Below, one piece after another: positions 8,378 to 11,824 of a stretch of DNA of 32,000 nucleotides; position 1 is the stretch's first letter, and each line of letters opens with the position of its first letter. The notes under the pieces were generated by a model, which had not been told where the DNA came from, did not search any database, and saw nothing but the letters and a program-made list of their open reading frames with translations. The translations under genes and the position numbers were made by a program. Source of the DNA: Mucisphaera calidilacus (GTDB taxonomy: Bacteria > Planctomycetota > Phycisphaerae > Phycisphaerales > Phycisphaeraceae); contig NZ_CP036280.1 in assembly GCF_007748075.1 (NCBI RefSeq), positions 2,070,001 through 2,102,000 of the forward strand. The letters run 5' to 3'.

Positions 8378-8740
8378 TCAGGTCATGTCGGGGATGAGGT
8401 TGTCGAGACCGGGGATGTCGATGTCGCCGACGGCGAGCTTGATCTCGGACTGGATCATCTGTTTGGCCATGGCCATGGCCTGGTTGACAGCCTGGCGGGT
8501 GAGGTCCTGGAGCATCTGTCGGTCGGCGTCGTTTGCGGCGGTGAGTGCGGCGGGTTCGAAGGTGATGTCGGTGACTTCGAGGTGTCCGGAGACGGTGACC
8601 TTGACGACGCCTGCGCCGGCCTCGGCGGTAACGGTTCGTCGTCCGAGTTCGTTCTTGACCTTTTCGGCGCGGGCCTTGAGTTCGTCGCGGTTGGCCCAGA
8701 GCTTGCCGAGTTCCTTCATCATTTTCATCTGTTCGAACAT
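8378..8740 (-). CDS. ybaB: YbaB/EbfC family nucleoid-associated protein
   Basis: The 120-aa product MFEQMKMMKELGKLW...AEAGAGVVKVTVSGHLEVTDITFEP... is typical of the YbaB family. Its ATG (8740-8738) overlaps the TGA of the upstream tau frame (TGATG). The R/H/Q/P-rich extension of this ORF to 9079 is rejected. Confidence 0.9.
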   Translation of the reverse strand: MFEQMKMMKELGKLWANRDELKARAEKVKNELGRRTVTAEAGAGVVKVTVSGHLEVTDITFEPAALTAANDADRQMLQDLTRQAVNQAMAMAKQMIQSEIKLAVGDIDIPGLDNLIPDMT

Positions 8741-9240
8741 CAGTTGTCCTTGTCGTCGTTGTCGGGTTGCTGTTGTTGTTCGATGTTGGTGACGGTGGCG
8801 TCGGGGAAGATCTCGAGTGCGAGTTTGATGCCTGGCTGGTTGAGTGCGTCGCGGAGGTTGGCCTTGCCGGTGGCGGTCTGTTGATCGGTGGCGGTGTTGG
8901 TCTGCGGGGTGCTGGTGCGGATCTCGAGGGTTTGCCCGGTGGCTTTGGCGAGGAGTTCGGCGAGTTTGGCGCGGTTGGCCGGCATGCCGAGGAACTTGAT
9001 CGCCTCGCGTTTGCTGGGTTTGGGGGCGATGGTGGCGGCGTTGTCGGTGAGTTGGGTGAGGGTGAGGAAGTCGACCCACGCGAGGGAGGGTGAGGCCTCG
9101 GCGGCGTGGCGGACGTGTGCCCAGACGGCGTTGATGTCGTTGGGGTCGGCGGCGGGCTGTGCGGTGGGTGCGGTTGGTGTGGCGGGTTCCAGCCTGGGTG
9201 TGTGCGGCCGCCCTGCCGTCTGGTCAGCTACGGCTTTTTT
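8740..9240 (-). CDS. dnaX: dnaX tau-specific C-terminal extension, in the -1 frame relative to 9228..10415 (needs recoding or a homopolymer-length correction)
   Basis: Hand translation from the slippery site is open for 164 codons to TGA 8740-8742. The sequence (..INAVWAHVRHAAEASPSLAWVDFLTLTQLTDNAATIAPKPSKREAIKFLGMPANRAKLAELLAKATGQTLEI..) resembles DnaX C-terminal domains. Confidence 0.6.
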   Translation of the reverse strand, partial: KKAVADQTAGRPHTPRLEPATPTAPTAQPAADPNDINAVWAHVRHAAEASPSLAWVDFLTLTQLTDNAATIAPKPSKREAIKFLGMPANRAKLAELLAKATGQTLEIRTSTPQTNTATDQQTATGKANLRDALNQPGIKLALEIFPDATVTNIEQQQQPDNDDKDN

Positions 9241-10415
9241 TTTTGAGTCGGGGTGGTGTTGCCGGCGAGGATCGCGGCGACGTCGGCCATCTTCTCGGCG
9301 AGGGCCATGCGGGCGAGGACGGCGTCGAAGAGTGCGCGGGGGTTGGCGGATTGTTTGGCGTGTCGCTGGAGGTTGTCGGCGAGGGTGATGAGGTAGACGA
9401 GGGCGTCGGTGTCGAAGTGTGCGGCGAGTTGGGCGGTGGTCTTGCGCGCCTCGTCGGAGAGTTCGACGACGTCGGCGTCGGGTCCGCAGGCGGCGACAAG
9501 CATGAGTTGCCGGAGTCGTTCGATGAGGGTTTCGACGACCTGTTCCTGGGATACGCCTCGGGCGAGCAGGTCGTGTCCGGCGCGGAGGGTTGCGGCGACG
9601 TCGCCTTGGGCGGCGGCGTTGACGAGGTTGTCGATGAGGTCGGTCTCGGGGAGACCGAGGAGTGTTTCGAGGGTGGTGACGGTGAGTTTGTCGTCGCCGG
9701 CGGCGGCGATGACGCGGTCGAGGAGGGAGAGTGCGTCGCGCATGGAGCCGTTGCCGAGGCGTGCGACGGTGTAGACAAGGTCGTCCTCGGCGTCGAGGGA
9801 TTCGGCGTTGACGACGGCCTTGAGGTGTTCGGTGATGCGAGCGGTGGGAATGGCGGGGAAGTCGAAGCGTTGGCAGCGCGACTGGATGGTGGGCGGGACC
9901 TTGTGGGGGTCGGTGGTGCAGAGGATGAATTTCACGTGCTCGGGGGGCTCCTCCATGGTTTTGAGGAGGGCGTTGAAGGCCTGGTTGGAGAGCATGTGGA
10001 CTTCGTCGATGATGTAGATCTTGAAGCGAGCGTTGGCGGTAGGGGCGAGTCCGGCGTTGGCGATGAGTTCGCGTGCGTTGTCGACGCTGTTGTTGGAGGC
10101 GGCGTCGATCTCGATGACGTTGAGGTCGTCGCCACGCATGATGGCGTCGGCCATGCGTTGCTGGACGTCGGTTTCGGGGAGTTCGACGTCGCTGGGCTGC
10201 GGTGCGTCGGGCATGGTTGCGGGTGCGTTGAGTGCGCGAGCGAAGAGGCGTGCCATGGAGGTTTTGCCGACGCCTCGTGTCCCGCAGAAGAGGTAGGCGT
10301 GGGCGACGCGGTCGCGTTGGATGGCGTTTTTGAGCGTCTGCGCGACGGCGTCCTGGCCGACGACGTCGCCGAAGGCCTGAGAGCGGTATCGTCGAGCGAG
10401 GACGGTGTAGGCCAT
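9228..10415 (-). CDS. dnaX: DNA polymerase III subunit gamma/tau, 0-frame product (395 codons, gamma-like)
   Basis: Canonical N-terminus MAYTVLARRYRSQAFGDVVGQD, Walker A FCGTRGVGKTSMARL, and IYIIDEVHMLS. Start placed at ATG 10415, because the longer ORF to 10520 would overlap the SRP RNA. Confidence 0.92.
   Translation of the reverse strand: MAYTVLARRYRSQAFGDVVGQDAVAQTLKNAIQRDRVAHAYLFCGTRGVGKTSMARLFARALNAPATMPDAPQPSDVELPETDVQQRMADAIMRGDDLNVIEIDAASNNSVDNARELIANAGLAPTANARFKIYIIDEVHMLSNQAFNALLKTMEEPPEHVKFILCTTDPHKVPPTIQSRCQRFDFPAIPTARITEHLKAVVNAESLDAEDDLVYTVARLGNGSMRDALSLLDRVIAAAGDDKLTVTTLETLLGLPETDLIDNLVNAAAQGDVAATLRAGHDLLARGVSQEQVVETLIERLRQLMLVAACGPDADVVELSDEARKTTAQLAAHFDTDALVYLITLADNLQRHAKQSANPRALFDAVLARMALAEKMADVAAILAGNTTPTQKKKP
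9234..9244 (-). other. A10 tract containing the A AAA AAG heptamer (candidate -1 ribosomal frameshift or transcriptional slippage site)
   Basis: T10 on the + strand at 9235-9244. On the minus strand the 0 frame reads CAA AAA AAA AAG CCG TAG. Confidence 0.5.
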
Positions 10416-10459
10416 GGTGTTGGGGCCGTCTCCATTGAGGCGATGGGACCCGGTCGAGG

Positions 10460-10572
10460 GGACAGGCGGCCAGGACACCGACGGCACCGGGCCGACGACG
10501 CTTAGGGCTGCTCCGGTCAAGGCCTGACCCGGTTCACGAGCCTACCCGTGCATCGGGCCCGACCGCCTGTCC
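10460..10572 (-). ncRNA. ffs: signal recognition particle RNA (4.5S-type)
   Basis: The minus strand folds into one long hairpin, closed by a perfect 10-bp terminal helix (GGACAGGCGG / CCGCCUGUCC). The conserved domain IV strands GGGUCAGG...AGCAGCCC are separated by 10 nt, as in E. coli 4.5S RNA. It sits directly upstream of dnaX, a classic position. Confidence 0.7.
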
Positions 10573-10693
10573 GATCGACGAGGTCGATCGAACTCAAGAG
10601 GGTATGGCAGGCGGGGGTGATGGGCAACCGGGTTGCCGGTTGTGGTGTAGTCTTTATGCTCAGGCATCGCGGGTCTTATTTATTGGGGTTCTC

Positions 10694-11824
10694 ATGATTA
10701 CATACATCCTGCGTGGGCTGTTCATTCTGCTGGCGACCTCGGTGACGGCGTTGTACGTGCTGCCGTTTCAGGCGGAGCAGGAGGTCAGCGTTCTGAACGT
10801 GATGATGCTGATCGGGGGGACGCTGATTCTGTGCGTGGGGGTGATCGCGTTGGACGCGGCCTACCCGGAGAAGGATCTGTCGGCGGTGTCTGGGGTGTTT
10901 CTGGGGATCATCGCGGGTTTGCTGGCGACGTACGCGGCGTCGTTCCTGGTGGATTTGATCCCGGTGCTGATCGAGTTCAAGGAGCCTGAGGCGATCGAGC
11001 GTCTGCTGCGTGGTGTGAAGGTTCTGCTGGGCGTGGTGTTCTGTTACGTGGGGATTTCGCTGGTGCTGCAGACGAAGGATGATTTCCGGTTCATCATCCC
11101 GTATGTGGAGTTTGCGAAGGAGTTGCGGGGTTCGCGGCCGACGCTGTTGGACACGTCGGTGATCGTGGACGGTCGGATCGTGGACATAATCGAGACGCAT
11201 GCTCTGCAGGGCCCGCTGGTGGTGCCGAGGTTCGTGCTGAACGAGTTGCAGACGATCGCGGACGCGTCGGAGAAGATGAAGCGTGCTCGCGGGCGGCGGG
11301 GTCTGGACATGCTGCAGAGCCTGCAGGAGAGCCACGCGATCGAGGTGCAGATCGAGGATCGTGATGCTGAGGGGGCGGGCGTGGACCAGAAGCTGATCAG
11401 TCTTGCGCAGCATCTGCGGGCGCGGGTGATGACCAACGACTACAACCTGAACAAGATCGCGCAGCTGCGCGGTGTTGAGGTGATCAACCTGAATGATCTG
11501 GCGAAGGCGCTTCGTCCGGTGGCGCTGCCTGGGGAGGAGTTGGTCGTGAAGCTGGTGAAGCCGGGCGAGAACCCGTCGCAGGGGGTGGGTTATCTGGATG
11601 ACGGGACGATGGTGGTGGTGGAGAACGGCCGGGAGCATATCGGCGAGCGTGTGGATCTGGTGGTGACGTCGACGCTCCAGACCTCTGCGGGGCGGATGAT
11701 TTTCGGGAAGTTCGCGTCGACGGAGGACGAGGAGGAAGCGGAGGAGGCGGTGACGGAGCCGGTGGCGGTCGCGGAGGAGGGGCATCGGGTGCGGACGACA
11801 CGTCGGAACCCGCGGCGGGGATAG
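10694..11824 (+). CDS. PIN/TRAM domain-containing membrane protein (YacL-like)
   Basis: N-terminal TM helices, a PIN domain (LLDTSVIVDGRIVDI...VVPRFVLNELQ...TNDYNLNKIA) and a C-terminal TRAM-like domain (GEELVVKLVKPGENPSQGVGYLDDGTMVVVENG). Start placed at ATG 10694. Confidence 0.8.
   Translation: MITYILRGLFILLATSVTALYVLPFQAEQEVSVLNVMMLIGGTLILCVGVIALDAAYPEKDLSAVSGVFLGIIAGLLATYAASFLVDLIPVLIEFKEPEAIERLLRGVKVLLGVVFCYVGISLVLQTKDDFRFIIPYVEFAKELRGSRPTLLDTSVIVDGRIVDIIETHALQGPLVVPRFVLNELQTIADASEKMKRARGRRGLDMLQSLQESHAIEVQIEDRDAEGAGVDQKLISLAQHLRARVMTNDYNLNKIAQLRGVEVINLNDLAKALRPVALPGEELVVKLVKPGENPSQGVGYLDDGTMVVVENGREHIGERVDLVVTSTLQTSAGRMIFGKFASTEDEEEAEEAVTEPVAVAEEGHRVRTTRRNPRRG

Follow-up and report, generated by a model that had tools for sequence, protein, structure and literature searches.

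How does a bacterium make the long tau subunit of its DNA polymerase III clamp loader when the reading frame of dnaX, the gene for it, closes just past a run of ten adenines, at the place where the short gamma subunit ends? This question is raised by the dnaX gene of Mucisphaera calidilacus (Planctomycetota, Phycisphaerae, Phycisphaeraceae), which we have examined in a stretch of 32,000 nucleotides (nt) of its DNA, called here the window; all positions are those of the whole stretch. The best explanation that we can offer is that the site is one of programmed recoding, by which both clamp-loader subunits would derive from a single gene having the short one as its DNA frame. In this frame, the dnaX sequence of the minus strand reads ACC CCG ACT CAA AAA AAA AAG CCG TAG at the break, and the run in the window sequence is exactly ten bases long. 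The features of the locus on which the argument depends are the following (ORF, open reading frame; aa, amino acids).

9228..10415, minus strand: dnaX ORF1 (0 frame), from ATG 10415 to TAG 9228-9230, encoding a gamma-type product of 395 aa
9235..9244, minus strand: A10 run of the sense strand (T10 on the plus strand), the slip site and gamma/tau boundary, within codons 391-394 (CAA AAA AAA AAG)
9234..9240, minus strand: heptamer A_AAA_AAG in 0-frame phase, made of the run and the next G; candidate site of a -1 ribosomal shift
9228..9230, minus strand: 0-frame stop TAG, two codons past the run, which closes gamma (...TQKKKP)
9224..9226, minus strand: +1-frame stop TGA, three codons past the run; the +1 frame reads SRS and then stops
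8740..9234, minus strand: tau-specific C-terminal part, 164 codons of the -1 frame and the stop TGA 8740-8742, joining ORF1 at the run
8378..8740, minus strand: ybaB/ebfC, 120 aa, with ATG 8740-8738 (Pfam YbaB_DNA_bd, 3.5e-19; also TIGR00103)

The product of ORF1 is 100% identical, over an equal length, to the NCBI protein 'DNA polymerase III subunit gamma/tau' of M. calidilacus (P0001). It contains the ATPase domain, the lid and domain III (Pfam DNA_pol3_delta2 at 1e-35, DNAX_ATPase_lid and DNA_pol3_gamma3; NCBIfam dnaX_nterm at 2.6e-112), so that its end coincides with the domain boundary at which E. coli gamma ends. The -1 frame, when translated from G 9234, begins with AVADQTAGRPHTPR... 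and stays open for 164 codons; fusing both frames at the run reconstructs a tau protein of 558 aa (...TQKKKAVADQ...), the stop of which, TGA 8740-8742, ends on the A that begins the ybaB ATG (TGATG). An earlier note on this DNA had given the run, the TAG, the TGA, the ybaB overlap and the lengths of both products and of the -1 frame, and all of them are correct when checked on the sequence. It had also proposed that the 0 frame specifies a gamma-like protein of 395 aa, and that tau needs a -1 change, equivalent to one extra A; translations and homology bear out this structure. The run is the sole homopolymer of eight or more bases in a window of 63% G+C, in which dinucleotide shuffles give a chance expectation of 0.06 for A9. 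Its presence is beyond chance; the slip site is real and selected.

Is the frame that follows the run a coding one? Its 164-aa translation matches the Pfam family DUF3646, 'DNA polymerase III gamma and tau subunits C terminal' (E 1.9e-6, with a score of 28.5 bits that lies slightly below the gathering score of 30.2 bits), and the NCBIfam model NF006585 at profile positions 458-598 of 616 (E 4e-8). Moreover, the reconstructed tau of 558 aa aligns with an uninterrupted metagenomic DnaX of 566 aa (P0006) in a single end-to-end BLASTP high-scoring segment pair of 57% identity, which passes unbroken across the junction (KKK-AVAD vs KKK-VAD). Judged from this homology, and not from ORF length, the -1 frame downstream of the run is the one encoding the tau C-terminus, which agrees with the impression recorded in the earlier note that it looked like a coding tau domain. 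Length was dropped as evidence of coding, for the -1 frame is also open over 434 codons upstream of the run (9234-10536, minus strand). The C-terminal ORF of 164 aa, searched alone against a set of 5.8 billion proteins, gave no match at E <= 1e-3; the linker together with the C-terminus is too divergent, or too low in complexity, for a word index.

The window also has a pronounced asymmetry between its strands, far exceeding the usual replication skew of bacteria. Over positions 1-32000 the plus strand contains 39.9% G vs 23.4% C and 21.9% T vs 14.8% A, and the GC skew ranges from +0.12 to +0.34 in each 2-kilobase bin, regardless of gene orientation. Owing to this skew, the minus strand has few stop codons and many long overlapping ORFs, and ORF length is therefore unreliable as coding evidence in the M. 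calidilacus genome. Among the long ORFs, the genes of the plus strand have 4 AAA vs 95 AAG and 4 CAA vs 85 CAG codons; those of the minus strand have 56 AAA vs 62 AAG and 42 CAA vs 115 CAG. Lysine codon bias, considered as a possible sign of selection for the run, was dropped, since AAA and AAG are about equally frequent in minus-strand genes.

Conservation of the break among Phycisphaeraceae

The next step is to see how the same position looks in related organisms, for which we used the 120 nearest DnaX protein clusters retrieved by protein search (Phycisphaeraceae, 64-77% identity) and the DNA read at 25 related loci. As many as 77 of the 120 clusters are short, with 389-446 aa, and 73 of these 77 end within eight residues of the lysine run, showing tails such as ...EKKK, ...QKKK, ...KKN and ...QKKKP; at least one short entry (P0022, which its source calls 'partial') stops short of the lysine run and was probably cut at a contig end. 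The other 43 clusters are long, 555-664 aa, each forming one continuous protein in which KK or KKK stands at the corresponding position. In total, KK or KKK occupies the slip-site position in 116 of the 120 related proteins. A run of A7 to A10 is present at 25/25 related loci, at codon 373-419 (373-401 except for L009). In the short type, comprising the window and 12 other distinct genes, tau lies in the -1 frame (12/12), the assignment being least secure for L004, where it is based solely on an acidic C-terminal tail resembling that of L003 and where the +1 frame is longer; an automatic rule equating the longest frame with tau mislabelled this locus and was rejected. The run lengths are given below for both types, to which some metagenomic loci could have been assigned in error because of homopolymer errors.

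Short type, tau in the -1 frame: A10 at L081, L082, L083, L085, L091 and L093; A9 at L086 and L096; A8 at L002; A7 at L001 and L004
Long type, tau in the 0 frame: A10 at L003, L006, L010, L013, L084, L092, L094 and L095; A9 at L008 and L012; A7 at L005 and L007

The A run and the frame break, the conservation of which the earlier note had named as a point to verify in orthologues, are therefore conserved, and dnaX in two ORFs is the majority state in Phycisphaeraceae. A scan of metagenome contigs with the last 351 aa of the rebuilt tau found one locus (L081, of the short type with A10); in genome contigs the nearest representatives were 58% identical, and the pattern YIIDEVHM matched unrelated phyla among the matches listed.

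These results bear directly on whether the break is genuine. Homopolymers are classic sites of assembly errors, and a true run of A11 would fuse the two frames; the earlier note had mentioned such an error as the trivial alternative, to which one may add that of a pseudogene, a gene inactive and giving no tau from this locus. Relatives refute the length error: the break recurs at this site in 77 of the 120 nearest of them, and A11 was seen at none of the 25 loci, where short and long types both reach at most A10. The comparison of L085 (short) with L094 (long) is instructive in this regard, because their proteins are 92% identical and in both genes GCC YTA G comes directly after A10, the difference being the codon phase that the Gly-rich linker upstream brings to the run. 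For P0097, five independent assemblies, Tara Oceans samples among them, agree on one and the same A9 allele, and the exact 397-aa product P0073, with the same tail as the window (...QKKKP), is present on five contigs. Nor does the locus look inactive, for past the run an intact frame continues whose homology to tau extends over 164 codons, in a cultured isolate. The C-terminal domains of tau are required for the assembly of the replisome, the Pol III holoenzyme. Artefact or pseudogene is thus an extremely improbable account of the break.

Equally to be weighed is the possibility that the gene is split, its C-terminal domain being translated from an internal start to act in trans, or that the A10 tract varies in length at the DNA level by phase variation. 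Gene callers do predict separate ORFs of 127-191 aa downstream of the break in relatives, and A10 tracts are generally known to be mutable in replication (as discussed in PMC1088944). However, the sole ATG, GTG or TTG codon in the -1 ORF is ATG 8985, which would yield 81 aa and miss the region conserved from the junction on, making independent translation of this ORF unlikely. Homology to the contiguous relatives begins immediately at the A run (KKK-(A)VAD), and a single continuous protein is made by 43 of the 120 relatives. As for phase variation, tau is needed in every cell, and rare DNA variants cannot supply it. We regard this pair of explanations as highly improbable and, even when artefact, split gene and phase variation are taken jointly, their combined probability remains low.

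Possible routes to tau: polymerase slippage and ribosomal frameshifting

If the break is genuine and the gene recoded, by which route is tau produced? We consider slippage of RNA polymerase on the A10 run to be probably the main one. Faithful A10 transcripts would be read as CAA AAA AAA AAG CCG TAG to give the gamma subunit of 395 aa, while slippage along the ten A:T pairs would generate a pool of mRNA molecules varying in the number of A. Those with one extra A (A11), as well as A8 and A14 transcripts, would bring the C-terminal region in frame and produce the 558-aa tau (...TQKKKAVADQTAGR...), with one Lys fewer in the case of A8 and one more in that of A14. Transcripts with A9 or A12 would instead run into the stop TGA 9224-9226 and give a second gamma-like form, with predicted endings ...TQKKSRS and ...TQKKKSRS and a length of 396-397 aa. 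Some further tau may come from mRNA on which the polymerase has not slipped, through a -1 shift of ribosomes on A_AAA_AAG.

Several lines of evidence favour polymerase slippage, which occurs efficiently already on runs of nine A or nine T in many bacteria (PMC1088944; PMC5009743). One regards the frames that do not encode tau. Both of them close within 10 codons after the run in 16 of the 17 loci having A9 or A10, against a background of no more than 4% of gene positions, L012 being the exception with a background fraction of 0.23; in the dnaX gene of the window no tested position (codons 20-350) closes both off-frames as fast, giving a background fraction of 0.0000. Such a rapid closure is the arrangement of Thermus, where any out-of-register count of A gives gamma, and thus supports slippage; the +1-frame stop, in particular, would be useless under pure -1 frameshifting. 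Another regards the base that follows the run, which among 21 loci is G 13 times, C seven times and T once, with 22 of the 77 short proteins ending in KKN. Since run length is kept and the next base varies, the AAG with which the E. coli heptamer ends is dispensable, and the observation favours slippage, which the earlier note had mentioned only in brackets, as one added A in the mRNA.

The main competitor is programmed -1 ribosomal frameshifting on the A_AAA_AAG of A10 mRNA, by which most of tau would be made while non-slipping ribosomes end as gamma. The window carries the exact heptamer of E. coli in the right phase, and the -1 position of tau at all short-type loci is what this explanation expects. 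The bare heptamer, without stimulators, yields about 14-16% of -1 shifting in E. coli systems (bioRxiv 10.1101/2025.10.02.679949), and candidates of the reversed type having stimulators like those of E. coli have been named, for instance Chlorobium phaeobacteroides (Atkins 2016, PMC5009743). Furthermore, the A7 relatives L001 and L004 retain an in-phase A_AAA_AAA and close only the 0 frame. Yet the window lacks both an upstream Shine-Dalgarno-like motif and a significant downstream stem-loop. The 70 nt downstream fold at -18.5 vs a shuffle mean of -20.2 kcal/mol (z = +0.59), no better than shuffles, and the only downstream stem begins at the G of AAG, with zero spacer; the 60 nt upstream give z = -0.12, and a GGAGG-like motif is absent from the 20 nt before the run, GGCAACACCACCCCGACUC. 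Likewise, the Rfam dnaX frameshift families gave no match at E up to 10. The earlier note, finding no convincing stimulators by eye, was right on this matter; its emphasis on the heptamer holds insofar as A_AAA_AAG is present in phase, less so for the clade, because relatives conserve the run and not the AAG (C or T comes next in 8/21), many of them having AAC or AAT in its place while retaining A9 or A10. A run of ten also exceeds the length that the heptamer needs, and the early closure of the +1 frame, shared by 16 of the 17 A9/A10 loci, would serve no purpose under pure -1 frameshifting. On balance, we find it rather unlikely, though by no means negligible, that frameshifting is the principal source of tau.

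Several considerations nevertheless weigh against polymerase slippage as the principal route. For M. calidilacus we infer both the slippage and the two products from the DNA sequence. The complete heptamer, with the shifting it sustains unaided in E. coli systems, implies that ribosomes could contribute to tau and even dominate its production, and a tau placed constantly in the -1 frame is as compatible with slippage biased towards insertion as it is with -1 frameshifting. Finally, L001, L002 and L004 have only A7 or A8, under the usual length for slippage, with one off-frame open. Because of these loci, the mechanism may not be uniform across the clade, and the more distant Phycisphaerales with A7 or A8 may form a separate class that relies on ribosomal frameshifting. 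Such sites lie at 4134-4140 in L001, 4125-4132 in L002, 1397-1403 in L004 and 4134-4140 in L007, and one off-frame stays open in them for 66-192 codons.

Switching of the templated frame, annotation and gene neighbourhood

Among the 120 lineages, the state specified by the DNA, with either tau or gamma as the templated product, has switched at least about 17 times vs 35 expected if random, a count that is approximate because it derives from a crude tree (built by the unweighted pair group method with arithmetic mean, UPGMA, on p-distances). Pairs of opposite state reach 92% identity, and A10 is retained in both states. We tentatively put forward, as a conjecture with somewhat less than even prospects, that the A10 run may be a frame-neutral expression device, at which slippage would affect near half of the transcripts and lineages could toggle freely between templating tau and templating gamma. 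If true, an essential subunit of the replisome would routinely come from 'erroneous' transcripts in most members of the family, and Phycisphaeraceae would constitute a natural system for studying how selection tunes polymerase slippage and the ratio of tau to gamma. The family is sampled densely enough to show that the A run is kept under either templated frame and that polarity flips often.

A practical consequence concerns annotation. In E. coli, the C-terminal domains of tau bind the DnaB helicase and the alpha subunit of Pol III. The 558-aa tau bearing the corresponding region appears to be unannotated in the public record of M. calidilacus, which lists only the product of 395 aa, and the same appears to apply to most genomes and metagenome-assembled genomes of Phycisphaeraceae. 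All the short-type genomes provided with gene calls (7/7, among L082-L093 and L096) have spurious 'hypothetical' genes of 127-191 aa laid over the tau frame, two of which show weak DUF3646 matches. This looks like a systematic mis-annotation of tau in the clade.

The overlap of the tau stop with the ybaB start recurs in the two closest relatives, by 8 nt in L082 (3747-3754) and by 1 nt in L083 (3715); more distant relatives have a gap of 10-320 nt between the two. Given this overlap, the translation of ybaB may be coupled only to those ribosomes that read the tau frame. An exact-sequence look-up of the YbaB protein of the window gave no record. We also noted a DnaX that is 66% identical in a set of eukaryote proteins (P0071, EukProt g15320.t1, 664 aa) and ends in a YbaB domain; contamination of a eukaryote assembly by Phycisphaerae DNA is its probable origin, with dnaX and ybaB fused in one gene model. 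On the other side, dnaX adjoins a divergently oriented gene for a membrane protein of about 400 aa (10604-11824 of the window, plus strand), and the gene adjacent to dnaX in several relatives (L085 354-1619, L093 404-1663) has weak matches to PIN_9 or TRAM. The membrane-protein gene beside dnaX may represent a conserved neighbourhood.

Comparison with known dnaX systems

Where does this locus stand among the recoded genes already known? Genes of dnaX divided in two ORFs, with tau needing recoding, have been described by Antonov et al. 2013 (PMC3711429) in Chlorobi, Bacteroidetes and Verrucomicrobia, and the same organisation is presented in the review of Atkins et al. 2016 (PMC5009743). In the former paper such genes number 17 in 12 genera, have a -1 change at the DNA level and include 12 with a poly-A run, nine of which are A10; the poly-A cases are ascribed to transcriptional realignment (PMC3711429). 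The taxa of its Figure S3 are Chlorobium, Prosthecochloris, Pelodictyon, Flavobacterium, Cytophaga, Capnocytophaga and Coraliomargarita. The window has the same organisation: ORF1 ends just past the poly-A run that separates gamma from tau, the -1 frame encodes the tau C-terminus, and the run, within the range of A7-A10 known for this type, has the length most common there. Orthologues conserve both where the break lies and in which direction it goes. The local sequence is close to that shown for Chlorobium luteolum (CAAAAAAAAAAGCCCCTGA vs CAAAAAAAAAAGCCGTAG in the window), and the mechanism proposed for those genes, transcriptional realignment, is the one that we favour for M. calidilacus.

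The window is thus a further case of a known arrangement, which differs from those described by Antonov et al. 2013 in its taxa and in being, in Phycisphaeraceae, the type of the majority, often alternating with the one-ORF type. Inverted polarity with respect to E. coli and Thermus, the feature stressed in the earlier note, is correct, as the 0 frame gives the 395-aa product, but it is not new (PMC3711429, PMC5009743). The screen of 2013 included just two planctomycete genomes, and no planctomycete is among the ten two-ORF cases that its account names, which belong to Chlorobi, Bacteroidetes and a single verrucomicrobium, Coraliomargarita (PMC3711429); our literature text search found no paper, beyond Antonov et al. 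2013, tying dnaX recoding to Planctomycetes. The mechanism is not new, therefore, and what is added is the extension of two-ORF dnaX to a new phylum, Planctomycetota.

With the dnaX gene of E. coli the window shares the heptamer A_AAA_AAG, its codon phase, the domain boundary at which it lies and the outcome of two products with a common N-terminus. The frames are reversed, however: in E. coli tau is the 0-frame product and gamma that of the -1 shift. The E. coli gene also has a Shine-Dalgarno-like stimulator about 10 nt upstream and a stem-loop 5-8 nt downstream, whereas the window has neither, and its heptamer is embedded in a longer run, the last base being unconserved in relatives. A further parallel is offered by mxiE of Shigella flexneri and other genes in which slippage joins two ORFs (PMC1088944): the longer, functional product is obtained only when a nucleotide absent from the template is inserted at a homopolymer run. 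The gene mxiE is unrelated to dnaX, as is its function, and its run is of U residues.

A counterpart in terms of mechanism is the slippage in dnaX of Thermus thermophilus that Larsen et al. 2000 reported and that PMC1088944 and PMC5009743 summarise. Both genes have a run of A9 or A10 on the sense strand at the gamma/tau boundary and nearby stops in the two frames that do not encode tau. In Thermus a mixed mRNA population gives both subunits, as would be expected also in M. calidilacus. The two differ in which product is templated: tau in Thermus, where the slipped transcripts give gamma, and gamma in the window, where one added A would give tau. By this analogy, the locus of M. calidilacus is best explained as the Thermus mechanism operating, as it would seem, on a genomic frame shifted by one base.

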